A DNA stretch of 62,323 nt from Candidatus Omnitrophota bacterium (GCA_016212005.1 JACRHP010000052.1:1-62323); one strand, 5' to 3'. Shown: positions 11,260 to 28,680, numbered from the stretch's first letter. The notes: generated by a model from the sequence alone, not told the origin. Made by a program: numbers and translations.

Positions 11260-12416
11260 CCCTCACATTCTGGCTCCTGATATCGCTCACGCTTTACTGC
11301 TACTTCGTCTACCCGCTGCTGTTGTGGCTCGTCGCGCGGTTACGGCCAAACCCTGTCCGAAAGGGGAGTTATGAACCAAAGATCTCCGTCGTCCTCTCGG
11401 TCTGGAACGAAGCTGATGTTATAGAAGGGAAGCTCCGGAACCTTTTGTCCCTCGATTACCCAAAAGACAAGATGGAGGTCCTCATCGGTTCGGACGGTTC
11501 CACCGATCAAACGGCCTCGATCGTCCGCGGGTTCAACGACCCGCGGGTCCATTTGATCGAACGGCCGCAGCGCCGTGGCAAAATGGCGACCTTGAACGAA
11601 CTGGTCTTCACGGCCCAAAACGACATCGTCGTTTTTTGCGACGCGCGCCAAGCCTTCGCCTCTGACGCCATCAGGGAATTGGTGGCCAATTTCTTCGATC
11701 CCAAGGTCGGCTGCGTGAGCGGCGAACTTATCTTTCAAAAGGAGGAGGAAGAAGAGGGCGCTACGGCCAAAGGTGTTGGCCTGTACTGGAACTACGAAAA
11801 GTTTATCCGCAAACAGGAAAGCCGGGTCCATTCCATGCTCGGGGCAACCGGGGCCATTTATGCTATCCGCAGGGAATTATTTGTCTCGATCCCGACCCGC
11901 ATCGTACTGGATGACATGTATATACCTTTACAAATTATCCGCAAAGGCTATCGGGCGGTCTTTGATGGATCCGCCAAAGCCTGCGATCACGCCGCCGACA
12001 GCCCGCGCGAAGAGCACCGCCGCAAGACCCGCACGCTCTTCGGAAATTATCAAATATTTGGGCTCTTTCCGGATTTGTTTAATCCCTTGCACAGCCCGGT
12101 CGCTATCCAGTTATTCTCACATAAACTATTGCGGGTGCTGATACCGTTATTTTTAATTTTTCTATTCATCCTGAATCTGCTCTTATCCGGCAGACCGTTA
12201 TACCAAACCATGCTTTATCTGCAAATTACATTTTACGGTATGGCCGCAACAGGGGCCTTGTCAAGATACCAAAAGCATGGTATCTTTAACCTCATATCTA
12301 AAGTCTGTTATATACCGTATGTCTTTTGCTTACTAAACTTTTCAGCGCTGATAGGAACATTGCGGTTCTTTGGCTCAAAACAGGAAGTCACATGGCAAAA
12401 AGCTCGCGAGAAATAA
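11256..12416 (+). CDS. GT2 family membrane glycosyltransferase
   Basis: SDGSTD, RGK, FCDA, GAIYAIRR, LDD; N- and C-terminal TM helices. Confidence 0.9.
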   Translation: MTLTFWLLISLTLYCYFVYPLLLWLVARLRPNPVRKGSYEPKISVVLSVWNEADVIEGKLRNLLSLDYPKDKMEVLIGSDGSTDQTASIVRGFNDPRVHLIERPQRRGKMATLNELVFTAQNDIVVFCDARQAFASDAIRELVANFFDPKVGCVSGELIFQKEEEEEGATAKGVGLYWNYEKFIRKQESRVHSMLGATGAIYAIRRELFVSIPTRIVLDDMYIPLQIIRKGYRAVFDGSAKACDHAADSPREEHRRKTRTLFGNYQIFGLFPDLFNPLHSPVAIQLFSHKLLRVLIPLFLIFLFILNLLLSGRPLYQTMLYLQITFYGMAATGALSRYQKHGIFNLISKVCYIPYVFCLLNFSALIGTLRFFGSKQEVTWQKAREK

Positions 12417-13240
12417 AAGCAATCCGGAACCAAATAAAATCACACCCCCAGGAATTTTTGCTGGCAGGGATGTTCATCCTCACCTACATCCCGACCTTTT
12501 TGTGGATGTGGGACAGGTGGTTCGCCCGCGACTCCTACTACAGCCACGGGATCCTGGTCCCGTTTGTCAGCGGATATCTCATCTGGCAGATGCGCGATGA
12601 ACTCGCGCGGATCAAGCCAAAGCGTTCACCGCTGGGCATGCCGCTAATCGTTACAGGACTCTTTATCCACGTCATCAGCTCGCTTTTCCGCGTCTATTTT
12701 ACTTCCGGGTTTTCCATGATCATAGTCCTGGCGGGTGTCATCCTTTTTCTGTACGGCACAACCACATTCAAAAAAATCTTGTTTCCCCTGGGATTCCTCG
12801 TTTTTATGATGCCGGTCCCCCTGGTCGTCATTGCCAATATCAGCTTTAAAATGAAGATCCTTGCCGCGCAGATCGCCACCGCCCTTCTCAACAACATGGG
12901 GTTGCCCGCCCTGCGCGAAGGGAGCATCATCAAAATGCACCATGCCTATGTCATTGTCGACGATATCTGCAGCGGCCTGCGTTCCCTGATTTCCCTGATG
13001 GCCCTGGGCAGCATTTTCGCGTACTGGATGAAGGGGCCCATGCTCAAACGGGTCATCCTGTTCTGCGCGACGGTCCCCATCGCCGTCATCACCAATGTCT
13101 GCCGGATCATCTTTCTGTCGTTTATTTCCGAAGTCTGGGGGCCGCAATACGCGACAGGGTTTGTCCATGACTTCTCGGGATTTATGCTCTTCGCCATCGC
13201 GTTCGCACTTTTGTACGCGGTGGGAAAAATCCTTGAATAG
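12392..13240 (+). CDS. xrt: Exosortase (EpsH family)
   Basis: Multi-TM protein; YYSHG, catalytic-type C (DICSGLRS), R (NVCRI) and H (VHD); followed by EpsI. Start uncertain. Confidence 0.9.
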   Translation: MAKSSREIKAIRNQIKSHPQEFLLAGMFILTYIPTFLWMWDRWFARDSYYSHGILVPFVSGYLIWQMRDELARIKPKRSPLGMPLIVTGLFIHVISSLFRVYFTSGFSMIIVLAGVILFLYGTTTFKKILFPLGFLVFMMPVPLVVIANISFKMKILAAQIATALLNNMGLPALREGSIIKMHHAYVIVDDICSGLRSLISLMALGSIFAYWMKGPMLKRVILFCATVPIAVITNVCRIIFLSFISEVWGPQYATGFVHDFSGFMLFAIAFALLYAVGKILE

Positions 13241-13272: not shown

Positions 13273-13926
13273 ATGAAAAATATGCAAAACAAAATTTTCG
13301 ACAAATCTTCTCTTATGATAGCTTTTCTTTTCCTCGTATCCGCCGCGATTTCCTGGCAGCTCTACTTTAAAGTCTACAGCCAGAAAGATACCGTGAGCAT
13401 CCATACGTTCCCCAAAGAGATTGCAGGATGGACTGCCGAAGAATTACCCATTACTGACAGAGAAAAGGCTATCCTGGAAACAGACAACGTTTTTGCCAGA
13501 CGCTACACAAATGTGAAGGGAGAAGAAGTCGTCCTGTTCATTGTTTATTCCCAAAATAACCGCAAGGTTTCTCATCCGCCCGAGGTCTGTTACACCGGAA
13601 GCGGGGCGACCATTTTAAGCAATGTCCATGACTCCTTTCCGGCCGGATCAACGGCCGGTGACATCCGCGTTAACCGCGTAGCCGTGGAACAAGGCCGCCG
13701 AAACCAAATATTTTTTTACTGGTTCAAGGTAGGGGATACATTTACGTCTAACTACTGGAAACAACAAGGGCTTATCGCTCTGAAATCGTTCCGCGGCCAG
13801 CCCTCCAGCAGCGCGCTGGTCCGCATTTCCATAGACAGCGCCAACCCCGAAGACCCGCAGGCCATCAAACGCCTAAAAAAATTTGGCCAGTTAATCCTGC
13901 CGCTTCTTAATCAGTATCTTCCCTAA
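13273..13926 (+). CDS. epsI: Exosortase-associated EpsI family protein
   Basis: FPKEIAGW, HPPEVCYTGSG, YWF and ALVRIS motifs; directly after exosortase. Confidence 0.85.
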   Translation: MKNMQNKIFDKSSLMIAFLFLVSAAISWQLYFKVYSQKDTVSIHTFPKEIAGWTAEELPITDREKAILETDNVFARRYTNVKGEEVVLFIVYSQNNRKVSHPPEVCYTGSGATILSNVHDSFPAGSTAGDIRVNRVAVEQGRRNQIFFYWFKVGDTFTSNYWKQQGLIALKSFRGQPSSSALVRISIDSANPEDPQAIKRLKKFGQLILPLLNQYLP

Positions 13927-13935
13927 AACAACGCA

Positions 13936-14976
13936 ATGGAAAATCAAAAAGAAAATTTAGAAAAAGCCGCCTCAATTCTTGCAAAGGACTTATTGTGTCT
14001 TAAGGAAGGAGAGAAACTGTTTATTTATGTGGACCGGGGAAGTGATTTGGCGGTGGCACAAAGCGTTCAAAATTATGCCGGAAAAACAGGTGTCCAGACA
14101 GAGCTGTACAAATTAAATGACCGTCTGGAGTTTCCCGAGAAGTTAAATGAGCTTACCGCCAAAATTGAAAGTGAACATTATGATGCGATCTGTGAGCTTT
14201 CGGAAGAATATTTCTATCCGACAATCGCCTGGAAGAAAGCGTTGGAGCGAAAAGCCCGCATTTATTCTCTGGCGGGAATGGATGCGCAGAGTTTCATCCG
14301 CTGTATCGGAGAAGTCGATCATGAGTCAATGTTCCGGCTTGGAACAAAATTGAATCAACGGTTAAAGGCGGCCAAAACGATTCATATCCGCACGGCCAAA
14401 GGGACAGACATAAAGTTTCGCATACAGGCGCGGATGAACCGTATATTACGGTCGCTATTGAAATCCATGAAAAAAGAGCTGTCCTATGTCATGGCCCAAT
14501 CAGGAACACCGGTACAATCGGGGCAATGTACGTTTCTGGGGGGACAGGTTGCCTTTCAGGGAATTCCGGAAACCATCGAAGGGACGGCGGTTGTTGATGG
14601 ATATTTATGGCCACCCAAAGAGGTTGGGCTGATTCAGGACCCGATTATATTGACGGTTAAAAAAGGTTACGTTACGGACATAGGCGGCTGTCCTGTGAAA
14701 TCGAAAGTTTTAAGCCAGTGGTTAAATGGAAAAAGCAAGAAGGTCAAACATTTTTGCTTGGGATTTCATCCTAACGCAAAATTATCCGGAGGACTCACCG
14801 AGGCTGAAAGAGTCTACGGCAACATCACGATAGGGTTTGGTGATTATCCATTTCACACGGATGGAATCATGAATAATCCGACTATATTAGTGGATGATAA
14901 CATTATGGAACAAGACGGTTTCTTTACGCATGAAAATCTACCAGCCTTTGCAATAAAGAATCCGAATCGGGATTAG
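13936..14976 (+). CDS. M29/thermophilic metalloaminopeptidase-like protein
   Basis: GTDIKF, EGTAVVDG, LTVKKG, LGFHPNA, HTDG; several expected metal ligands look substituted. Confidence 0.6.
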   Translation: MENQKENLEKAASILAKDLLCLKEGEKLFIYVDRGSDLAVAQSVQNYAGKTGVQTELYKLNDRLEFPEKLNELTAKIESEHYDAICELSEEYFYPTIAWKKALERKARIYSLAGMDAQSFIRCIGEVDHESMFRLGTKLNQRLKAAKTIHIRTAKGTDIKFRIQARMNRILRSLLKSMKKELSYVMAQSGTPVQSGQCTFLGGQVAFQGIPETIEGTAVVDGYLWPPKEVGLIQDPIILTVKKGYVTDIGGCPVKSKVLSQWLNGKSKKVKHFCLGFHPNAKLSGGLTEAERVYGNITIGFGDYPFHTDGIMNNPTILVDDNIMEQDGFFTHENLPAFAIKNPNRD

Positions 14977-15744: not shown

Positions 15745-18700
15745 ATGAACCGGATAAACACTCTTCGCAGTAAGATTGGTATTGTCGTTTGTTCGTTTGT
15801 GACTGCTTTGGTGATGGTCAACACTGCCCGTGCCGCCGATCTCTATGTAGAAACAGAAAGCGCGGCGACGTTAACGGCCCCGATGCAAATCGCTTCCGAT
15901 GCCACCGCCTCCGGTGGAAAATTTATTTATATCCCTAATGGCAATGGTGTGTCCTATAGCGTCCCGGGAAAAGGGACAGCTTCATATACGATCAATATCC
16001 CGCAAAACGGCACCTATGCCCTCTGGGGCAGAATTATTGCGCAATACCCAAATGATGATTCATTTTTTATTCAAGTGGATAGTGGAACCAACTACACCTG
16101 GCCCACGCCGGCTGGAAGCACCTGGCATTGGGCACGGGTGAAGGACATGTTTCATCATAGTTATGTAACGCTTTCACTTAGTGCAGGCGTACATACGATT
16201 AGCGTCAAGCACCGTGAAGACGGGGCAAAGATCGATAAATTATTTTTAACGGATGATATGGCTTTTGTGCCGAGCGGTTTAGGGGGAGACTCTGCTTCTG
16301 CCGAAGTTTGCGGCAACGGGACATTGGAGGGAACTGAACAATGCGATGATGGCAATGCCGTCAGTGGGGATGGTTGTACCGCATCCTGTACCCTTGAGAA
16401 GTGCGGGGATACGGTTGTGCAGAGCGGTTTGGGAGAAATCTGCGATGAGAACACGCAAAGTTGCACGACCTCCAATGGATACCGCGGTACGCAAACCTGC
16501 AATGCTCAATGTTCCGCCTTCAGTGCCTGTGTGAGCACCGAGTCCTGCGGGGACGGCACTGTCAACGGCAGTGAGCAATGCGACGACGCAAATACGCGCG
16601 GGGGAGATGGGTGCTCATCGGTGTGTTTGGCCGAAAGCGCACAAACCAATGATCCGGCGATATGGATTGAAACGGAAAACGCGGACAGCGTTGCCGCACC
16701 GATGGAAATTGTTGCGGACACCACGGCTTCCGGAGGGAAATTCGTCTATGTTCCCAATGGAAAGGGCACTTCCCTTAGCGTTCCGGCACCGGGCATGGCG
16801 AGTTATACAGTCACCATCCCCAAAGACGGTAACTATGTTTTATGGGGCAAGGTCATTGCGCAATATTCTAACGATGATTCCTTTTTTGTTCAGGTGGACA
16901 GCGGGACCAATTATACATGGAATACGCCGGATGGGAACACATGGCATTGGGCAAGAGTCAAGGATATGTTCCAAGGCAACATAACATTCCCATTGAGTGC
17001 CGGCGTTCATACAATCAAAGTGAAGCAACGGGAAGACGGCACTAAAATCGACCAGTTGTTTTTAACGGACGACCTGAACAGGATACCGGAGGATAATACC
17101 CCTCCACCGGCTCCGATAGTCACGGCCGCATGCGGCAACGGTGTCGTAGAATCACCCGAAGGCTGTGATGACGGTAATCTGAGTTCCGGGGATGGATGCT
17201 CAACGACCTGTACGCTGGAATCTTGCGGGGACGGCATCGTCCAGACCGGCGAGCAATGCGACGACCACAATACGATTGCCGGCGATGGATGCTCGGAAAC
17301 CTGCAAAACAGAATTCTGCGGGGACGGTATCCTGCAGACCGGCTTGGGAGAACAATGCGACAAAGCCGGCACGAGCCTGGTGTCCTGCACGACAACGACA
17401 GGATATACGGGCACGAAAACCTGCTCTGCCACCTGCACGTTTGGAACATGTGTTTCCAACGAAACTTGCGGGGACGGCATCGTCCAGTCCGTTGAGGAAT
17501 GTGACGATCATAACACGGTCAACCTTGATGGATGTTCAGCTCAATGCCTGCTGGAAAAAACAAAGGCCTCGCTCGATCAGGAAGGCATGGCGCGGGTCCA
17601 GGCATTGGAGGCGAAATTAAATAACATGACGATTGTCCCGACCCATCCGAGGATTTTCCTGAACCAGGAAAACCTCGCGGAGTTGAGATCAAAAACGGGA
17701 CAGGCGGCCTGGAACGCGGTTCTTTCCAAGGCCACCCAGAGCGACCTGATCAGCTCGGCATTGGGATATCTGATGCTGGAGCAGAGCAATCCCGGGCAGG
17801 CGCTTATTTATGCCAATAACGTATTTAATAACATCAACAATGCCACCTATGTTAACTGGTGCGCCACGGGGCAGTATGATCTAACACCTCGTATCAACGT
17901 GGCGATAGCCTCGTTGGCCTTTGACTGGGCCTATAACGGCCTGACGGAGGCCCAACGGAGTATCATCATCAATAAGCTGGCTGCCGCGGCCGATATCGTG
18001 GCCAAAAAAAAGGAAATCGATGATGGGGTGGTTCCCCAAATTGGTTCTTCCGCCTGCTATAAGAATGCGACCAAAGGCGAGACATTCCACCGGGAAGAAT
18101 GGGCATTCTACGCTTTTGAGGTTTGGCCGGAGATCGCGTTGGCCGGACATCATCCGGATGCCGAAGCGGTGTATAAAACCCGCTGGGATTATAGGTGGTA
18201 TTGGGGCGATGCCGCCCGGATGGAAGCCTATGTCAATGATGGGACTCCCTTTGAAGGGTATTATTTCGGCAATGACGGTGTATCGTGGTTCCTGCCGCTC
18301 AAGACCGCCACAGGCATCAACCTTGTTGACGGATCGGATTCGACCTGGAACAGGGACGCGGCTTATTACATGTTGTACCGTTTTGATATCGCCAACAGCC
18401 GGGAGACCATGCATAAGGGAGTAGCGACATCCAACCTGGCAACAAATTCGTTCCTGAAATCTGTTACCGATACCTGGAAATTACGTGAACATATTTCCAG
18501 AACGTTTTCCATCGGAGCGAAGAAAGACCCTTATCTGCAATGGTTTATCAACAACAAAATCGACCGGTTCTCTTCATGGTTAATGACCAACAATTATTTC
18601 GGCAGCGTCACGGCACTGTATGATGTATCAAAATTGCTGTTTTACGATGCGGCCGCCCCACAGAAAGACCCGACAACGGCGACCTATGCGGAATTGCCGT

Positions 18701-20214
18701 TCGACCGTCATTTCGCGGGAGGCAATGAAGCCTACATGAGGACCGGATGGGGCCCCAAAGCGACCATTGTGGGTTTTCGCAGCAAACCGGCCTTTACCAT
18801 GACCTCTCACAGTGACTTCGACGTCAATACCTTCGTCATCCATCGCGACGGCGGGCCGCTGGCGCCGGATTCCGGTGTCTATGACGCCTATGAACAGCAA
18901 AGAAATTATATGCAATATCAAAAAAATACGATTGCCCATAACAATCTACTAATTATCAACCCCGCAGATCCAGATGGCCCCAAAAAATTATCACTTGCGC
19001 CGGATCCGGGTGGTGTTGATTTACGTTCCACAAGAACTTTTTCAGCGCCAAATTCATTTTTACATTCTGTATTTGTAGAAAACGATCCGACACCGAACTG
19101 GGCGGATATTGCCAAGTTCGAAACCCAGCCAGGATACGCCTATCTGGTCGGCGACGGGAAGGAAGCCTATGGCAGCCGTTTGAGCAAATACGACCGCAAC
19201 CTGGCTTTCTTGCGTAAAGGCAATGACGAGGGGTATTTGATTATCTTCGACCGCGTCACCGCCGCCAGTTCAACGTATAAGAAAAAATGGCTGCTTCACA
19301 CCGTTAACGAACCTGTCTTAAACGGTAAAATCATCGGCACGCAAGTGCCTGGACATATCGAGACCTACGATGGTGATTCTATAACGACGACCAGCTATGA
19401 AGGGACTTCGAAGCTGCACGCGAAAGTGCTCCTGCCGGCCGGCCACAGTATCCGGCGTATCGGTGGAGAAATACTCCATACCAACGGAACTGTCAATGTC
19501 GACTACGGCAGTGATAAAGTGGTCGGCAATGGAACGACGTTCGCCCAAGTCATGGTGGGGCATTATTTCCACGTCAATAAGGACAAGACATCGACTGTGC
19601 CATCCGGTTATGATGGCTTTTACGATTGGTATCAAATTAAAAGCGTGGAGGATGCCGCACACCTGACGTTGAGCCGGGCATATACAAAGACAGCTCTCAA
19701 CGAACCCTACACGATCAATCAAGGTTATCAGTACTGGGTCGATGGAACAACACCCAAAAACATCTTCGTAACGGGCTCCACGAAAGCCACAGTAGACAGC
19801 GCATTGACCGGCAAGGCCTGGCAGCACATGGGGCAGGGAAGGATCGAACTGATGCCGCCCGACGGCAATAAAACTGATTATTTCCTTGTGGCTATGTCCA
19901 TTGGTGATATCAATTCAATCATGCCGGCGAACACATCACTCGTGGAAAACAAAACCGGCGACGCGATGGAAGGCGTTCTCATCGACAATAAGGTCGTTAT
20001 GTTTGGGCAGACAGGGAATGCGATCTCCCAGACATCGTTCAAAGTTAACTACAATGGCCCGGTGGATTTTATGATTGCGGATTTAAATCCCGGCCAAACA
20101 TACAGCGTACGCAAGGAGGGGGCCTTACTTTTTACCAGGACGGCTTCCAGCCAGGGGACCATCAGTTTCAGTGATAACCCCGGCTCAAGCGGCGCGACAT
20201 ATTCGCTCTTATAA
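15745..20214 (+). CDS. Large secreted modular protein: two CBM6/35-like domains, Myxococcus-type Cys-rich repeats (DUF4215-like), heparinase II/III-like lyase region
   Basis: Signal peptide ending ARA; duplicated ASGGKF..NDDSF..REDG.KID domain; many CGDG..EQCDD.N...GDGCS repeats; C-terminal region paralogous to 5887..8229. Confidence 0.8.
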   Translation: MNRINTLRSKIGIVVCSFVTALVMVNTARAADLYVETESAATLTAPMQIASDATASGGKFIYIPNGNGVSYSVPGKGTASYTINIPQNGTYALWGRIIAQYPNDDSFFIQVDSGTNYTWPTPAGSTWHWARVKDMFHHSYVTLSLSAGVHTISVKHREDGAKIDKLFLTDDMAFVPSGLGGDSASAEVCGNGTLEGTEQCDDGNAVSGDGCTASCTLEKCGDTVVQSGLGEICDENTQSCTTSNGYRGTQTCNAQCSAFSACVSTESCGDGTVNGSEQCDDANTRGGDGCSSVCLAESAQTNDPAIWIETENADSVAAPMEIVADTTASGGKFVYVPNGKGTSLSVPAPGMASYTVTIPKDGNYVLWGKVIAQYSNDDSFFVQVDSGTNYTWNTPDGNTWHWARVKDMFQGNITFPLSAGVHTIKVKQREDGTKIDQLFLTDDLNRIPEDNTPPPAPIVTAACGNGVVESPEGCDDGNLSSGDGCSTTCTLESCGDGIVQTGEQCDDHNTIAGDGCSETCKTEFCGDGILQTGLGEQCDKAGTSLVSCTTTTGYTGTKTCSATCTFGTCVSNETCGDGIVQSVEECDDHNTVNLDGCSAQCLLEKTKASLDQEGMARVQALEAKLNNMTIVPTHPRIFLNQENLAELRSKTGQAAWNAVLSKATQSDLISSALGYLMLEQSNPGQALIYANNVFNNINNATYVNWCATGQYDLTPRINVAIASLAFDWAYNGLTEAQRSIIINKLAAAADIVAKKKEIDDGVVPQIGSSACYKNATKGETFHREEWAFYAFEVWPEIALAGHHPDAEAVYKTRWDYRWYWGDAARMEAYVNDGTPFEGYYFGNDGVSWFLPLKTATGINLVDGSDSTWNRDAAYYMLYRFDIANSRETMHKGVATSNLATNSFLKSVTDTWKLREHISRTFSIGAKKDPYLQWFINNKIDRFSSWLMTNNYFGSVTALYDVSKLLFYDAAAPQKDPTTATYAELPFDRHFAGGNEAYMRTGWGPKATIVGFRSKPAFTMTSHSDFDVNTFVIHRDGGPLAPDSGVYDAYEQQRNYMQYQKNTIAHNNLLIINPADPDGPKKLSLAPDPGGVDLRSTRTFSAPNSFLHSVFVENDPTPNWADIAKFETQPGYAYLVGDGKEAYGSRLSKYDRNLAFLRKGNDEGYLIIFDRVTAASSTYKKKWLLHTVNEPVLNGKIIGTQVPGHIETYDGDSITTTSYEGTSKLHAKVLLPAGHSIRRIGGEILHTNGTVNVDYGSDKVVGNGTTFAQVMVGHYFHVNKDKTSTVPSGYDGFYDWYQIKSVEDAAHLTLSRAYTKTALNEPYTINQGYQYWVDGTTPKNIFVTGSTKATVDSALTGKAWQHMGQGRIELMPPDGNKTDYFLVAMSIGDINSIMPANTSLVENKTGDAMEGVLIDNKVVMFGQTGNAISQTSFKVNYNGPVDFMIADLNPGQTYSVRKEGALLFTRTASSQGTISFSDNPGSSGATYSLL

Positions 20215-20268: not shown

Positions 20269-20306
20269 ATAGGACAGTCCAAGACAAACCAGGACTGTCC
20301 TATTTT
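20269..20306 (+). terminator. Intrinsic terminator
   Basis: ATAGGACAGTCC/GGACTGTCCTAT stem followed by a T run. Confidence 0.7.
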
Positions 20307-20395
20307 CATTATTTATTCCTCCGTATAACATATCCTATCTCACAATATCCCAATATGTTATAAAACATAGAAAATCACTCATAAACAACATAACC

Positions 20396-20412
20396 TTGGC
20401 ACGCAATTTGCT
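20396..20412 (+). promoter_or_regulatory. sigma-54 (-24/-12) promoter
   Basis: TTGGCACGCAATTTGCT, an exact match to TGGCAC-N5-TTGC. Confidence 0.85.
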
Positions 20413-20443
20413 CTTACCAAAGGTACATGGAGTATCAGAACCT

Positions 20444-21304
20444 ATGAAACTGGTAAGAGAAAAAATTGCGAACGCGGCCTTCATGATGACGATGATCATC
20501 GCGGCCGTTCTTTTTGTCAGCACCGCCTGGGCCACGTTATCTTTTATTGCACCCCACGACGCCACGCCGGCCGCGGGCGCCGGCCAATCTATCCAGCAAA
20601 CAACAGCCGCTTCACTCGACCAGACGGAAAAGCCCAGATCACGCGCGCCGGAACCATCCACCATAATGCTTTTCGGAAGCGGTATTTTGGGCATGGTCGC
20701 CGGTTTTGTCCGCAGGACCTATCACGCGGTTAAACGCGTCTTTGACATCGCCGCCTCAATTTGCGGAATTATTTTGCTGTCTCCGCTTTTTCTGGTTACG
20801 GCTCTTCTCATTAAATGCACATCCAGAGGACCGGTCTTGTTCACGCAAACCCGCGTGGGCAAGGATGGAGAGCTGTTCAACATTTATAAATTCCGTACCA
20901 TGCGCGTGGATGCCGAAAAGCAAACCGGTCCCGTGTGGGCCGCCGATAATGATCCCCGACTTATCCCGGTCGGAAGATTTTTGCGCAAAGCGCACATTGA
21001 CGAGATCCCGCAATTCATCAACATCCTCAAAGGGGACATGAGCTTGATCGGCCCGCGGCCGGAACGTCCCATATTTGTTGAAAAATTCATGGAAGAGATC
21101 TCAGATTACGAAAAGCGTCTGGCGGTTAAACCGGGCCTCACCGGACTGGCCCAGGTGTGGCACAAGTACGATGAAACCGTGGAAGACGTCCGGAAAAAGA
21201 TCAAATACGATCTTCTCTATATTAAGAAGCTCTGCCTGTGGACGGATATGCGCATTCTTTTCCGCACCATTCGTGTCGTTTTTACGGGCGAAGGAGCAAG
21301 GTAA
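20444..21304 (+). CDS. Priming sugar (phosphoglycosyl) transferase with N-terminal signal peptide and internal PEP-CTERM motif
   Basis: KRVFD, YKFRTM, DPR, IDEIPQ, GPRPERP and KPGLTGLAQV; preceded by APEPSTIMLFGSGILGMVAGFVRR. Start ATG 20444 after a GGAG RBS. Confidence 0.9.
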   Translation: MKLVREKIANAAFMMTMIIAAVLFVSTAWATLSFIAPHDATPAAGAGQSIQQTTAASLDQTEKPRSRAPEPSTIMLFGSGILGMVAGFVRRTYHAVKRVFDIAASICGIILLSPLFLVTALLIKCTSRGPVLFTQTRVGKDGELFNIYKFRTMRVDAEKQTGPVWAADNDPRLIPVGRFLRKAHIDEIPQFINILKGDMSLIGPRPERPIFVEKFMEEISDYEKRLAVKPGLTGLAQVWHKYDETVEDVRKKIKYDLLYIKKLCLWTDMRILFRTIRVVFTGEGAR

Positions 21305-21357: not shown

Positions 21358-22221
21358 ATGAAAAAGGTTCTATCATTTATTGCAGCAATGGTAATTGGGC
21401 TGTTTACGTCTCAATCGGCAAGTGCCTTTCCCATGTTCGCAAACAGCGCAACGTGAGGACCGGATTTGGTTCACGAATTGAACATCACTGGAGGTAGCGG
21501 CTCATTGGTTCAGAACTACAATGTATCCACCGGGAACGGCCGTGGCGTGGTTCTTGTGGGCAACACCATCTATTCGACCGAATCCGGACCCGGCGGCAAT
21601 ATTTTCGGGGGAAGTAATCTGATCTATAAGACAGACAGAACGACAGGATTACCATTGGGTACGATTACTGTGTCTGCTCTTCCGGCCGGTGCAGCCATGT
21701 CCACCCTCGCGTGGGATGGAACTCACTTCTGGACATCGGAGTACCTCGGCGGGAATCACGGCTATAGAATCGACACTTCCGGCAACATTGTTAAGACTAT
21801 TACCCTTGGTTTGGCGGGTTCCAACATGGATGGAATGGAATACTTCAATGGCAAATTGATTGTCAACCGTGGCGATACGGTCGGGCCGTATGATGTTTAC
21901 GATCTCGACGGCACTGTGCTCCAAGCGGCATTTATTACTCCTGGTTATGCTACTACCGGCATCGCTTTCGACGGAACAGACTTCTTTACATCCAACATCT
22001 TCGGGAGTGCTTTGTCTCAGTGGGATGGGACGACCGGGGCATTCAAGAATAATATCCCTCTGACTGGCGGCTCCTTCCTTATCGAGGACTTATCCGTTGA
22101 CTATGCCTTGCGTGAGGATACCGGTGGCAACGGCGGTCCCGTGATCCCGGAACCGGCAAGCATGTTGCTTTTAAGCAGCGGATTGTTAGGTATGGCCGGC
22201 GTTCGCAGAAAGAATACGTAA
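21358..22221 (+). pseudogene. PEP-CTERM protein (beta-rich) interrupted by an in-frame TGA at 21454-21456
   Basis: RBS + MKKVLSFIAAMVIGLFTSQSASA-FPMFANSAT*GPDLVHEL, in frame with ORF 21466..22221, which ends IPEPASMLLLSSGLLGMAGVRRKNT. Confidence 0.75.
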
Positions 22222-22261: not shown

Positions 22262-22990
22262 ATGAAAAAAGTATTCGCGATCTTGGTTTTGGGCGTAACC
22301 ATCCTTGGGGTCAACTTGAAAAGTGCCGATGCCTTTACGGCAATTAGCGGCACATTCGCCGATCCCAGTGGGTTAACTTTTGGGACATATTCATCCGGCG
22401 CGGAAGGGTACGGCTGGACGCCGCCAACTTATTATGGATGGAACGGTGCTTGTAACCCGGCGGGGTCGGGAGATTGCTTCTCTAAAAATGGCAATGCCCG
22501 GGACTGGTATTGGATCCAGGACACTAGCGGCCCGAACAACGCGGCTTCGACCGGCCTCATTTATGACCTGGGCGGACAAGCGAACAAAGTGGTTGTTTTC
22601 CCTTTAATTGATCATGACCCCGTAGGGCCGGAAAGCTGGGAATACAATGTCTATCTTTCCAATGATCTGTCAACCTGGACACCGGCCACATTGATTGAAT
22701 ACTACACGGAAGGCTGGTCTCCCAATCCGGATATTTCTGATGGATATACGACTGTTTGGGAATTAGGCTCAAGCTTGACAGCCAGATACGCTTCTATTAC
22801 TGCGGGTAATAACGGAAACCCTGATTCATCTTTTTATTATGATAGTTTCGATAATGAAATTGACGCGGTGGCAGGTCTCACCGAACAAGGGGGAGGCCTT
22901 GGCAACAACGCCGTTCCCGAACCGGCAAGCATGTTGCTTTTTGGCAGCGGCTTGGTTGGTTTTGTCGTTAACCGCAGGAGAAAAAGCTAA
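22262..22990 (+). CDS. PEP-CTERM surface protein
   Basis: Signal peptide; ends VPEPASMLLFGSGLVGFVVNRRRKS. Confidence 0.9.
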   Translation: MKKVFAILVLGVTILGVNLKSADAFTAISGTFADPSGLTFGTYSSGAEGYGWTPPTYYGWNGACNPAGSGDCFSKNGNARDWYWIQDTSGPNNAASTGLIYDLGGQANKVVVFPLIDHDPVGPESWEYNVYLSNDLSTWTPATLIEYYTEGWSPNPDISDGYTTVWELGSSLTARYASITAGNNGNPDSSFYYDSFDNEIDAVAGLTEQGGGLGNNAVPEPASMLLFGSGLVGFVVNRRRKS

Positions 22991-23070
22991 CAACAGTTTT
23001 CAACATCTTCGGATGTTTCATATAAATCAGGTAAAAAATAACAAACGTTAAGAAATCAATGGGGGAGAAG

Positions 23071-23931
23071 ATGAAAAAATTAAACTTAATCCTGGGCATC
23101 ATGGCTGCCGTTGTTCTTACGGCCACCTGCGCCTCGGCACAACCGTTTTCGCCAGGCATGGCCGCGGACACATACGGCATTGCCCAGGGCGGTAGCAACC
23201 TGTTGGGGGTTCCGACGCCAAATGACAATAATGATAACCTGTTGGGATCACCGAATCCTGCGGATATCAACGATGCCATCAATTTATTGCTTGGCACAAG
23301 CTATACCCGCAACTCCGATGTGGATTTCTTACAATGGACATCGGGCGATAATTCTTGGATCGATTTAAGCACCACAGAGGCCAAGGCTACCTATGCCATT
23401 ATCAGCCTTACGGCGTCCAATTCAAACACCCTCGGTGTTTATAAAGTTTCTGATCCAATCGGCACAAAGGCAGAAGTCCTTGGGCCATACCACGGATTTG
23501 GCTTTAAGGGTTTCGGAACTGCTGTGAGTCCCTTCCCGGCAGGTCTATCTCCTTATACGGGGGGAGAAAATTTCGGGTGGTATCTAAAATCTGTTGGTTT
23601 CCCAACCGTAAATTACTGGTACTCTCAGCCTACGCTCAACGTGGATGCGATGGATCACATGTTGACCTATCACCTCGGAGATCTAGCAGGACAGAGCGTC
23701 TGGATCAAGGTCGGATCCGGGGATCCTTACGAATACACGTTTTACGACCCCTTCTTAATTGCTTTTGAAGATATTAAGAAGCTGGGGAATGGCAAACTTG
23801 GCGATGAAGATTTCGATGATACGATTTTCTTAGTTGATCGTGTTCATCCAGTCCCGGAGCCAGCAACTATGGCGCTTTTGGGCAGTGGGTTGATGGGATT
23901 AGGCGGGTTGCGCAGAAGGAAATTGAGCTAA
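23071..23931 (+). CDS. PEP-CTERM surface protein (DUF4114-like C-terminal region)
   Basis: Signal peptide; IAFED...DEDFDD; ends VPEPATMALLGSGLMGLGGLRRRKLS. Confidence 0.9.
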   Translation: MKKLNLILGIMAAVVLTATCASAQPFSPGMAADTYGIAQGGSNLLGVPTPNDNNDNLLGSPNPADINDAINLLLGTSYTRNSDVDFLQWTSGDNSWIDLSTTEAKATYAIISLTASNSNTLGVYKVSDPIGTKAEVLGPYHGFGFKGFGTAVSPFPAGLSPYTGGENFGWYLKSVGFPTVNYWYSQPTLNVDAMDHMLTYHLGDLAGQSVWIKVGSGDPYEYTFYDPFLIAFEDIKKLGNGKLGDEDFDDTIFLVDRVHPVPEPATMALLGSGLMGLGGLRRRKLS

Positions 23932-25990: not shown

Positions 25991-27286
25991 ATGGGCTTGT
26001 TCACCAAGACAGAGCAGGATGAAAACACGCAAGTTGAGGCGCTTCAGAAAGTTAATGAAATCTGCGCGCTTGTCACTACCGTCCTTAACGAACAGGATCT
26101 CCTCGAACAATCTCTCCAGCAGACCATGCGCCTTTTTGGGGCAACCCGGGCGTCCGTTTTTATCCTTGGCGAAAATGGTAAAGATCTGATCATGCGCTGC
26201 GCTTCAGGCATGCAGCGCGCCGAACAGGAAAAAATGGTCAAAAAAATGGGGGAGGGGATCGTCGGCCATGTCGCCAGACGCAAGCTTCCCATCGTGGTAG
26301 ACGACATCGAAAACGACGCCCGTTTCCACGATTTCAAGGCGCGTAAAAGCTACCGGACGCCTTCTTTCATATGCGCGCCTCTTATGATCAAAGACAAGCT
26401 GCTCGGTGTCGTCAATATCGCGGACAAAGGGTCGGGGTTATGTTTTACCCAAAACGAGATGCAGCTGCTCGATTTTCTTTCCACCCAGATCGCCCTCAAT
26501 TACCGCCGCATCGAACTTTATCAAAAGTTCAAGATCATGGTCCGGGAAACCCGGACACTCAAGGACCGTCTCGGCCAAAGCGACCAGGAGGCCAAAACCC
26601 TCAAAAAACAGGTCCACATCAATGAACGCCTCGCCACGATCGGTAAGTTGGCCGGAGGGATCGCCCATGAATTCAACAATCCGCTTGACGGCGTCATCCG
26701 CTACACGAACCTTTGTCTGGAACACACCAAAGATGACGAGGTTGTCCGCGGGTATCTTCTGGAAATCAAGCACGGCCTTAACCGCATGGCCAATATCGTG
26801 AAAAACCTGCTGGCGTGCTCGCGCAACGAATTCCAGCCGGGAGAACGTGTCAGTTTCCAACAAATACTGGAGCGTTCTCTGGCAAGCGTACATACCGAAG
26901 TTGAACATAAGAATATCAAAATCGAAAGAAAAATTGAAGAAAATATCCCGCCTCTCCGGGACCTGGGACTGGAACATATCCTGACGAATATACTCCGCAA
27001 CGCCGTCGAAGCCACCGGCCCCAGCGGAGGCAAAATTACTATTGAAGCTCAATGCCAGGAGAAACAACTTCAGATCAAGATCCGCGATACGGGTGCGGGT
27101 ATCCCCTCCGCGGAGATCGAAAAAATCTTTGAACCGTTTTACACAACCAAGGCCATGGACAAGGGCTGCGGCCTCGGCTTGACCATCGTCGCTGAAATCA
27201 TCAAAAGTTACGGCGGGAAAATCCGGGTCGAAAGCGAACCGGGCGACGGGACGCTGTTTCTGATTGCCTTACCTTTACAACAATGA
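25991..27286 (+). CDS. GAF-domain sensor histidine kinase (cytoplasmic)
   Basis: GAF (GEGIVGHV); H-box IAHEFNNPL; N, G1 (DTGAGI), F (FEPFYTTK) and G2 (GCGLGL) boxes. Confidence 0.9.
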   Translation: MGLFTKTEQDENTQVEALQKVNEICALVTTVLNEQDLLEQSLQQTMRLFGATRASVFILGENGKDLIMRCASGMQRAEQEKMVKKMGEGIVGHVARRKLPIVVDDIENDARFHDFKARKSYRTPSFICAPLMIKDKLLGVVNIADKGSGLCFTQNEMQLLDFLSTQIALNYRRIELYQKFKIMVRETRTLKDRLGQSDQEAKTLKKQVHINERLATIGKLAGGIAHEFNNPLDGVIRYTNLCLEHTKDDEVVRGYLLEIKHGLNRMANIVKNLLACSRNEFQPGERVSFQQILERSLASVHTEVEHKNIKIERKIEENIPPLRDLGLEHILTNILRNAVEATGPSGGKITIEAQCQEKQLQIKIRDTGAGIPSAEIEKIFEPFYTTKAMDKGCGLGLTIVAEIIKSYGGKIRVESEPGDGTLFLIALPLQQ

Positions 27287-28680
27287 TCATGTCCCAGGAA
27301 TCCGAAAAAGCCGTACAGATCCTCATCGTGGATGATGAACCGCTCATCCGCAAATCCCTCTATGAGATTCTGCGCATCGAGGGCTACCGGGTCCAGATGG
27401 CCGGAAGCGGGGAGGAGGCCTCTGGTATTCTCTCCAAAAACGACATCAATATTGTCGTCACTGACATGCAACTCCCTAAAATGAACGGGATTGAACTCCT
27501 GGAAACCATCAAAAAAAGGTCACCGCACACCGAAGTCATCCTGGTGACTGGTTACGGCACCATTGAATCCGCTGTCGCGGCCATGAAAAAAGGGGCGTTT
27601 GACTACATCACCAAGCCCATCAACGACAACGAAATCAAAATTATTATCCAGAAACTCATTGAAAAAAAGAAACTCCTGGACGAAAACGCGCAGCTCAAAC
27701 AGATCATCGCCAAAGAACGGCGCAGCCGTTTCTGCGACCTCATTGGCGCCAGCTCCCGTATCCAGGAGGTTTATCACATCATCGATTCGGTCGCCAGCAG
27801 CAACGCCACGATTCTGGTCACAGGGGAAAGCGGGACAGGCAAGGGGCTTGTCGCGCGTGCCATCCACCAAGCGGACCAGACCCGCAAGGATAAACCTTTT
27901 GTGGAGATCAGCTGCGGGGCCCTGACCGAAACGCTCCTGGAGAGCGAACTGTTCGGCCATGTCAAAGGGGCTTTTACCGGCGCCATCAAAGACAAGGAGG
28001 GCCGGTTTGAATATGCCCAGGGCGGCACTATTTTTCTGGATGAAATCGACGCGTTTTCACCGGCCCTGCAGGTCAAACTACTGCGTGTTCTGCAAGAAGG
28101 ATTGTTTGAGCGGGTGGGGGACAACACGCCTCGACGGGCGAATACGCGGATCATCGTCGCCACCAATCAGAATCTTACTGATCTTGTTGAAAATGGAAAA
28201 TTCCGGGAAGACCTTTATTACCGTATCAATGTCATCTGTATCCATGTCCCGCCGCTACGCGAACGTAAAGACGACATCCCGCTTCTGACGGATCATTTCC
28301 TCAAAAAACACTGTGGGACCAACGGCAAAAAAAATACCGGGTTTTCCAACGAAGTGGAAAAGATGTTCCTGGATTACGACTGGCCGGGGAATATCCGGGA
28401 ACTGGAAAATGCCGTCGAAGGCGCCATTATCATGGCCAGGACGGCCGTCATCAACAAATCAGACGTGCCTAATTTCGCGAAATTCTCGTCCCTTTCCGCC
28501 AAAAAGTCCCAAGAACGGAATCTCAAAAAAGCCGTAGAAGAGCCGGAGAAGGAACATATCATCGCCATCTTGAAAGACTGCAGCTGGAACCGCAATAAAG
28601 CGGCCGCGTCTCTGGGGGTCAACCGGACGACCTTGTATAATAAAATGAAGAAATACAATATCAACGAGGAAACGATCTAA
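27283..28680 (+). CDS. sigma-54-dependent response regulator (NtrC family)
   Basis: Receiver domain, GESGTGK, ESELFGHVKGAFTGA, WPGNIREL and Fis-type HTH. Confidence 0.95.
   Translation: MIMSQESEKAVQILIVDDEPLIRKSLYEILRIEGYRVQMAGSGEEASGILSKNDINIVVTDMQLPKMNGIELLETIKKRSPHTEVILVTGYGTIESAVAAMKKGAFDYITKPINDNEIKIIIQKLIEKKKLLDENAQLKQIIAKERRSRFCDLIGASSRIQEVYHIIDSVASSNATILVTGESGTGKGLVARAIHQADQTRKDKPFVEISCGALTETLLESELFGHVKGAFTGAIKDKEGRFEYAQGGTIFLDEIDAFSPALQVKLLRVLQEGLFERVGDNTPRRANTRIIVATNQNLTDLVENGKFREDLYYRINVICIHVPPLRERKDDIPLLTDHFLKKHCGTNGKKNTGFSNEVEKMFLDYDWPGNIRELENAVEGAIIMARTAVINKSDVPNFAKFSSLSAKKSQERNLKKAVEEPEKEHIIAILKDCSWNRNKAAASLGVNRTTLYNKMKKYNINEETI

Follow-up and report, generated by a model that had tools for sequence, protein, structure and literature searches.

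A PEP-CTERM sorting signal inside a putative polysaccharide-priming transferase suggests a link between exosortase and glycan initiation in Candidatus Omnitrophota

Analysis of a 62,323-nucleotide (nt) stretch of DNA from an uncultured groundwater bacterium, Candidatus Omnitrophota bacterium (GCA_016212005.1, JACRHP010000052.1:1-62323; hereafter the window, meaning the whole stretch), identified a gene on the plus strand at 20444-21304 that encodes a phosphoglycosyl transferase (PGT) of 286 amino acids plus stop, in which a PEP-CTERM sorting signal stands in front of the catalytic domain. A functional link between this PGT and the exosortase encoded in the same exopolysaccharide (EPS) locus is strongly supported by comparative evidence, because the Pro-Glu pair of the signal is invariant, exosortase is encoded in every genome that has this build (54/54), the gene order is conserved, and longer relatives are PEP-CTERM proteins fused to the transferase. 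The reading that we prefer, with a rough probability of 0.45, is that the protein is a working PglC-type initiating transferase, has the layout of a PEP-CTERM protein, and is a client of the neighboring exosortase. This suggests that sugar-chain initiation and surface-protein sorting may be physically linked in these bacteria.

The open reading frame ending at position 21304 has two possible starts, a TTG at 20396 and an ATG at 20444. We took the ATG as the start because a sigma-54-type promoter element (20397-20411) overlaps the TTG; the resulting form is 100% identical to the gene-caller product P0001, and the residue numbering used here follows it. Residues 1-30 (20444-20533) read from the sequence as a signal-peptide-like segment with a basic n-region, a hydrophobic helix and an AWA, and are followed by a predicted periplasmic spacer of about 38 residues beginning at residue 31 (20534-20644), which is rich in Thr, Ser and Ala and is variable. 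The internal PEP-CTERM module, APEPSTIMLFGSGILGMVAGFVRR, occupies residues 68-91 (20645-20716) and consists of A-PEP (PEP at residues 69-71), a glycine-patterned transmembrane helix of 18 hydrophobic or small residues, and RR. Ten connecting residues lead into a monotopic PGT catalytic domain (PF02397; 20732-21283) with the motifs KRVFD, DEIPQ and GPRPE, a re-entrant helix with a Ser-Pro break, and a DE dyad; we take the catalytic and structural roles of these residues to be those assigned in work on PglC.

The protein scored 24.5 bits against PF07589 (cut-off 20.7), 17.4 against TIGR02595 (cut-off 16) and 234 bits against PF02397. The same profile searches had been proposed in an earlier note on this DNA, whose description of a signal peptide, a linker, a PEP-CTERM module and an intact PGT agrees exactly with the sequence, coordinates included. 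The score against TIGR03025 (315.1, cut-off 295.55) comes from an alignment to profile positions 250-445 of 445 alone, and membership in TIGR03013 (XrtA-associated EpsB_2) was rejected (271.9, cut-off 393.35). Scanning the genome in six frames with PF07589 gave ten PEP-CTERM matches, among them 20645-20716 (27.7 bits, above cut-off) and the tails of three genes located downstream of the PGT (22144-22212, 22910-22981, and 23848-23919). The likeness between these tails and the internal module, which the earlier note had also pointed out, includes a shared pattern of L, G, G and G residues that is common to the PGT module and the canonical tails of the same loci.

An AF2 model of the PGT (119-sequence alignment) had a mean pLDDT of 85, with a helix at residues 2-34 (pLDDT >90), a disordered stretch at 35-70 (pLDDT of about 46-56 in the spacer), a helix at 71-111, a break at the conserved Ser-Pro (residue 112), and a further helix at 113-126. 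Foldseek matched this model to PglC (8e37_A, E 1.9e-12, TM-score (target) 0.76) and to WbaP (8t53_A, E 2.9e-11). The gene at 20444-21304 is the sole PF02397 match in the 1.81-Mb, 86%-complete genome, and the corresponding gene is the only such match in 10/54 genomes with this build, the window's genome included. Considering that these genomes have no other PF02397 match, that the catalytic residues are invariant, and that a PglC fold was modelled, the enzyme is probably active.

The joined frame itself is genuine. Of the 120 closest homologues (61-100% identity, from many assemblies), 119 have the same continuous frame, with PEP about 28 residues before KRxFD, and the lone exception, P0053, is N-terminally truncated. 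A Logan contig of run X1, possibly the source sample, is identical to 20300-21067 with zero differences or gaps (a contig, not raw reads), and the Logan contigs of the four runs have no insertion or deletion listed over the PGT region; no RNA run was listed among the sequencing runs with this DNA. In addition, 27 loci of named metagenome-assembled genomes (MAGs) show the build in an unbroken frame. In view of these homologues and loci, the 54 genomes with this build and the exactly matching contig, we regard it as extremely improbable that a small PEP-CTERM gene was joined to a PGT gene by a frameshift, by an overlooked stop or by chimeric assembly.

Conservation was assessed in two sets, one of 52 N-termini that come from different genomes and share 20-62% identity with the N-terminus of the window's PGT, and one of 119 full-length sequences. 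In the N-terminal set, P69, E70, K97, D101 and P114 are invariant, while P71 and A30 are each retained by 90% or more of the sequences. In the full-length set the three PEP columns hold P in 119, E in 119 and P in 117 sequences, and K97, D101, P114, D186, E187 and G203-P209 (GPRPERP) are invariant; in both sets the PEP motif is thus conserved to the same degree as the catalytic motifs. Judging from these alignments, the PEP motif of the PGT is under selection, and with Pro-Glu in 119/119 sequences the homologues do not show the lack of PEP conservation that, according to the earlier note, would have spoken against its proposal.

Upstream of the motif, Ala30, at position -1 of the AxA, is Ala in 50/52 and 112/119 aligned sequences, as expected for a signal-peptidase site, and 45/52 N-termini have A, S, C or T at residue 28. 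This conservation of small residues at -3 and -1 suggests that helix 1 is a cleaved signal peptide. The distance from the conserved Ala to PEP in relatives ranges from 10 to 64 residues (median 34), and most of the intervening columns have no consensus. A small surface peptide had been thought to be released from this region, and it is conceivable that the piece freed at PEP is a functional surface or signalling peptide for which the transferase is a mere carrier, given that the residues after AWA (TLSF[VI]) are moderately conserved in the closest subfamily and that the longer relatives described below would deliver a real domain. Since the short-form spacer varies so much in both length and sequence, with some spacers of only about 10 residues, the arrangement is unlikely to serve the release of a functional peptide, and we give this explanation very little weight.

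The exosortase gene lies at 12392-13240 on the plus strand, as previously noted, and its product scored 185.9 against TIGR02602 (cut-off 105.55), the single match in the genome. The residues C193, R238 and H259 are invariant across 49 exosortase sequences. None of 14 listed subtype models passed, the nearest being XrtA (185.6 against 208), and the enzyme may represent an unnamed subtype; among solved structures, no exosortase relative was found by sequence. The next gene (13273-13926, plus strand) encodes the exosortase-associated protein EpsI (TIGR02914, 107.6 against 42.8), which in relatives stands between exosortase and the PGT with its PEP-CTERM module (PEP-PGT).

The search for the same N-terminal architecture, and for its co-occurrence with exosortase, that the earlier note had called for was carried out in 401 genomes of the phylum (Omnitrophota by homologue names) with the first 114 PGT residues as query. 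Matches were obtained in 66/401 genomes, and 58 of them ran into the transferase without a stop. Four genomes were removed before counting: the match in G145 is to an unrelated enzyme and that in G357 to a canonical PEP-CTERM protein, and the PGTs of G320 and G398 have a two-helix N-terminus without PEP. The PGTs of the latter two genomes (L051, G320:C7, and L056, G398:C12) are small and have a helix that resembles a signal peptide and a second, Gly-rich helix that ends in basic residues; exosortase is encoded 3-4 kb away, with the genes arranged differently. Inspection of the sequences left 54 genomes with the PE[P/F/V]-helix-PGT build, of which 52 have PEP and the other two have PEF and PEV, respectively. 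This set was found with a motif-containing query, so that conservation figures are somewhat biased.

Exosortase (TIGR02602) is encoded in 54/54 genomes with this build and in 68/347 of the others (122/401 overall), a count that overstates the number of separate events because related genomes are not independent. It is on the same contig as the PEP-PGT gene in 52/54 genomes and within 3.5 kb in 48/54, and the order exosortase, EpsI, PEP-PGT on one strand was found in 47/51 loci with enough flank. In related loci a GT2 gene is often located upstream and genes for PEP-CTERM proteins usually follow the PEP-PGT; the window's locus is unusual solely by two genes inserted between EpsI and the PGT. 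It should be noted that some named loci may duplicate sampled species, and that the scan of genome collections, which used strict patterns and found only Omnitrophota-type MAGs, says little on other phyla. Some of the MAGs from that scan are titled "uncultured Planctomycetales", and one "Lysobacterales".

The origin of the module is indicated by longer relatives. A profile search with the N-terminus identified 276 representative proteins (E up to 0.001) among 1.84 billion, many of which are short fragments of the same family. The hits include proteins of 372-485 amino acids (P0142, P0157, P0160, P0168, P0179, and P0181) in which a signal peptide is followed by a domain of 100-250 residues (PKD in P0179), a PEP-helix-basic module and then PF02397; of ten proteins scanned, four scored above the PF07589 cut-off. 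P0181 is named "sugar transferase [Elusimicrobiota bacterium]", which places the design in more than one phylum. Residues 6-268 of P0160 (485 amino acids) are 48% identical (E 2e-74) to P0295, a stand-alone PEP-CTERM protein of 266 amino acids, and the similarity extends from the signal peptide to the end of the tail. A search with residues 1-300 of P0160 gave 67 homologues, namely 13 long ones that run on into the PGT and 54 stand-alone proteins of 266-314 amino acids that end 23-31 residues after PEP, several of the latter named as PEP-CTERM sorting domain proteins from Omnitrophica, Thermodesulfobacteriota, and the PVC group. This homology and the stand-alone relatives indicate that the long forms are ordinary exosortase cargo fused, tail first, to the transferase, and the cargo domain of such a protein could leave only if the internal signal is cut. 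By the same homology, the module of the PGT is descended from real sorting signals, and the short form in the window looks like the long-form design with its cargo shrunk to a spacer.

A metagenome scan with the long form P0179 gave 34 loci, all of them matching the catalytic domain alone; none of the 26 PGT frames read had PEP upstream (0/26), and no exosortase or EpsI was found in the same 34 loci. In a tree of the catalytic domains (unrooted, built by a quick method and with one aberrant long-branch row, L139), the 52 short forms fall on one side of a branch with an SH-aLRT of 98, together with P0151, P0261 and L139, and the long forms make up two neighboring groups that are separate from the large PGTs encoded in the same genomes. 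A single origin of the short forms is compatible with this tree. One locus (L038, G123:C1:155600-162300) has, downstream of a single exosortase-EpsI pair, two PEP-PGT genes 3.3 kb apart, which agree fully in the catalytic columns used for the tree but have different N-terminal spacers.

Two or more PEP-CTERM modules per chain were observed in 46 of the 149 best representative hits checked. The largest chain, P0123, has 10 modules in 2500 amino acids and is named as a PEP-CTERM protein of a Planctomycetales MAG; P0158, P0162 and P0180 are further examples. The repeated unit consists of PEP-helix-RRRR, a loop of a few residues, a new AxA signal peptide, and a cargo of about 200-280 amino acids. 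In L058 (G357:C59), at about 2200-2400, a tail is in frame with the next signal peptide, this being the sole chain checked at the DNA level for artefacts. Such chains make internal PEP-CTERM modules a recurring design, and as polyproteins they have a coherent topology, in which signal peptidase and exosortase could separate the units from one another. A wider proposal, which we put forward only tentatively, is that PEP-CTERM might also be a modular internal cut junction in membrane-threaded polyproteins, with exosortase and signal peptidase dissecting multi-cargo chains and, in one class, releasing or licensing the EPS-initiating enzyme.

The catalytic domain of the PglC/WbaP class acts at the cytoplasmic face of the membrane. 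This leaves only one coherent topology for the protein in the window: the N-terminus would be inside, helix 1 would lead out to a periplasmic spacer with PEP at the outer face, and helix 2 would lead back in, to RR and the enzyme. The topology of the PGT N-terminus matches that of a PEP-CTERM cargo tail exactly, in keeping with the cytoplasmic placement of the catalytic domain after RR that had been proposed.

Taking this topology as a starting point, we propose that the signal peptide would drive Sec insertion of the PGT and would probably be removed after AWA. What remains would be a short stub in the periplasm, PEP on the periplasmic surface of the inner membrane, and a single transmembrane helix anchored by RR; the catalytic domain, which has a re-entrant helix of its own, would lie on the cytoplasmic side. 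Exosortase and EpsI would then recognise PEP-helix-RR as they do in cargo tails, most likely with a cut at PEP, because the module comes from real signals, the cargo of the long forms must leave, multi-module chains exist, and the Cys, Arg and His of the exosortase are intact. The stub would be discarded or transferred and the helix-anchored transferase would stay at the exosortase site, where polysaccharide initiation could take place close to the sorting of PEP-CTERM cargo and keep pace with it. In this scheme we infer the removal of the signal peptide, the recognition of the module by exosortase, the cut at PEP, and any effect on enzyme activity. Thus, of the original idea that exosortase cleaves or recruits the EPS initiator, the functional link is upheld by the comparative evidence, which does not discriminate between cleavage and recruitment. 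A complex prediction for the exosortase (A4) with PGT residues 50-100 (A3) gave values of 0.20 and 0.26 against a mark of 0.32; made without controls, it gave no verdict and was not used.

Apart from the relatedness of the sampled genomes and the bias of the query, several observations weigh against the PGT being an exosortase client. Exosortase action on an internal PEP-CTERM would be without experimental precedent, and the extreme C-terminal location typical of the signal is absent here, since 195 residues, with the whole PF02397 domain, follow RR. In the text available from PMC1569441, the PEP-CTERM domain is described as C-terminal "virtually without exception" and PF02397 genes are listed as neighbors alone. 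The flank of the PGT module, [KR]-x-[RH]-A-PEP-S-T, is distinct from that of the local canonical tails, V-[VI]-PEP-A-[ST], which could mean a different fate. The PGT module and the canonical tails of the same locus do not co-vary, with mean identities of 0.342 within and 0.334 across loci (37 loci, permutation p about 0.17). Finally, G320 and G398 encode a related PGT with a two-helix N-terminus without PEP, and PEF and PEV variants occur in G394 and G368, suggesting that the hairpin can persist as a plain anchor.

These PEP-less and decayed variants, together with the absence of locus-specific co-variation, could be taken to mean that the hairpin is of PEP-CTERM descent and now serves as a two-helix anchor or topology device, that exosortase is uninvolved, and that the synteny reflects nothing but a shared EPS locus, as PF02397 genes are known near EpsH without fusion (PMC1569441, available sections). 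A plain anchor would have no need of an invariant Pro-Glu, of a third Pro in 117/119 sequences or of the Gly pattern, all of them next to a spacer that cannot be aligned, and the build is found solely in exosortase-bearing genomes (54/54) although some PF02397 gene is present in 316/401. We consider this explanation unlikely and place it behind the one that follows.

The main rival to a cut at PEP is that PEP-helix-RR is an uncut pseudo-substrate, possibly regulatory, that sits in the groove of the exosortase and holds the transferase in a complex of exosortase, EpsI and the EPS machinery. Co-occurrence, synteny and motif conservation would be the same in this case as for a client, and the PGT modules are more uniform than the canonical tails (61% against 42% identity) and have the distinct basic flank, which fits a specialised interaction without turnover. 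However, the cargo domains of the long forms, homologous to sorted stand-alone proteins, would be trapped if uncut; moreover, exosortases are regarded as proteases or transpeptidases of the Cys type (bioRxiv 10.1101/2023.06.07.544157, in the part available), and the Cys, Arg and His are intact here. A tether of this kind is possible, but we think it clearly less probable than a PGT that is a client of the exosortase.

How exosortase acts on its cargo, and why it is constantly present in polysaccharide loci, has been a standing question since 2006. In the literature consulted, the link between exosortase and EPS consists of co-occurrence, floc phenotypes, and one recent report, in the accessible part of PMC13751637, that an epsH knock-out alters EPS structure. 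A sorting signal welded to the EPS-initiating enzyme would represent a direct and testable physical link between sorting and polysaccharide initiation. If the wider proposal of internal cut junctions holds, each exosortase round would commit one initiating transferase at the same site, which would amount to a stoichiometric and spatial coupling of glycan initiation to protein anchoring and would offer a first handle on the target to which exosortase attaches its cargo. As a matter of speculation, sugar amines exposed by the two deacetylases of the locus could be the acceptors in a transpeptidation.

The PGT gene is predicted to head its own sigma-54 transcription unit. A sigma-54-type -24/-12 element, TGGCAC-N5-TTGC, is present on the plus strand at 20397-20411, 33 nt 5' of the ATG, and is the sole exact match in the window. 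In 82 related loci we found 51 exact sites, against about 0.75 expected from length alone, and 50 of the 51 lie on the gene's strand, at most about 205 nt upstream of the PEP-PGT start. With up to two mismatches allowed, the element is present in 57/64 distinct upstream regions and in 20/128 control windows inside the gene. The locus also encodes a sigma-54 activator, a sigma-54-dependent response regulator that is found with a histidine kinase (25991-28680, plus strand); the two are PrsK/PrsR-like, with scores below the cut-offs and thus not memberships (TIGR02915, 409.7 against 502.6; TIGR02916, 102.7 against 300). The PGT is probably co-transcribed with the three cargo genes that directly follow it, given that the intergenic gaps are short.

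These three canonical PEP-CTERM genes are located on the plus strand at 21358/21466-22221, 22262-22990 and 23059-23931. The first of them (21358-22221) has an in-frame TGA at 21454-21456, 32 codons past its ATG, between a signal peptide (MKKVLS...SASA) and the body of the protein, and a pseudogene, a sequence error or read-through are all possible; a BLAST of this gene against the related loci returned no close homologue. Of the two genes between EpsI and the PGT, which correspond to intergenic gaps in relatives, one (13936-14976, plus strand) encodes a 346 amino acid protein without an NCBIfam match. The other (15745-20214, plus strand) encodes a secreted protein of 1489 amino acids that contains five acidic repeats rich in Cys (TIGR02232) and a part resembling heparinase. 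The rest of the EPS locus in the window includes genes for a GT4 glycosyltransferase, a heparinase-like protein, two polysaccharide deacetylases, a GT2 glycosyltransferase and a TPR protein.

In line with the earlier note, which knew of no account of this architecture, we found no description of a PEP-CTERM inside a PGT in the full-text literature, with supplements and the 2012 J Bacteriol exosortase/archaeosortase paper outside the scope of the search. Internal signals go unmentioned in the available part of a 2023 preprint (bioRxiv 10.1101/2023.06.07.544157) by the same author as PMC1569441. Databases show both Pfam domains on these proteins, under generic names (glycosylphosphotransferase, sugar transferase). 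On the sequence evidence presented here, the rule that PEP-CTERM is C-terminal only has systematic exceptions.

Among known systems, the PEP-CTERM/exosortase (EpsH) system, as described in the available text of PMC1569441, resembles the arrangement in the window in its signal peptide (a signal-peptide-like segment in the PGT), its PEP abutting a Gly-rich transmembrane helix, and its basic cluster, and also in the strict co-occurrence with exosortase and in an EPS locus with EpsI and a PrsK/PrsR-like sigma-54 pair. The difference is that the tag of the PGT is not C-terminal, as a 195-residue cytoplasmic enzyme follows it and the cargo is reduced to a stub of 10-64 amino acids. With the small monotopic PGTs of the PglC type (8e37, 8g1n) the protein shares PF02397, the Ser-Pro re-entrant helix, the DE dyad, 37-38% identity, and the same fold; whereas PglC starts with the re-entrant helix, the PGT in the window has about 96 residues in front of it, comprising the predicted signal peptide, the spacer and the PEP-CTERM helix. 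The large transferases of the WbaP, WcaJ, TIGR03025 and TIGR03013 types, of which the TIGR03013 members are neighbors of exosortase systems by their NCBIfam name, have the same catalytic domain, but their N-terminus is a four-helix bundle with a cytoplasmic domain that is absent from the window's PGT. Finally, ArtA/PGF-CTERM and sortase/LPXTG share with this system a tripartite signal of motif, helix and basic residues and an enzyme with Cys, Arg and His (bioRxiv 10.1101/2023.06.07.544157, available part). In those systems the part that follows the helix amounts to a few discarded residues, whereas in the PGT it would be the enzyme that is kept.

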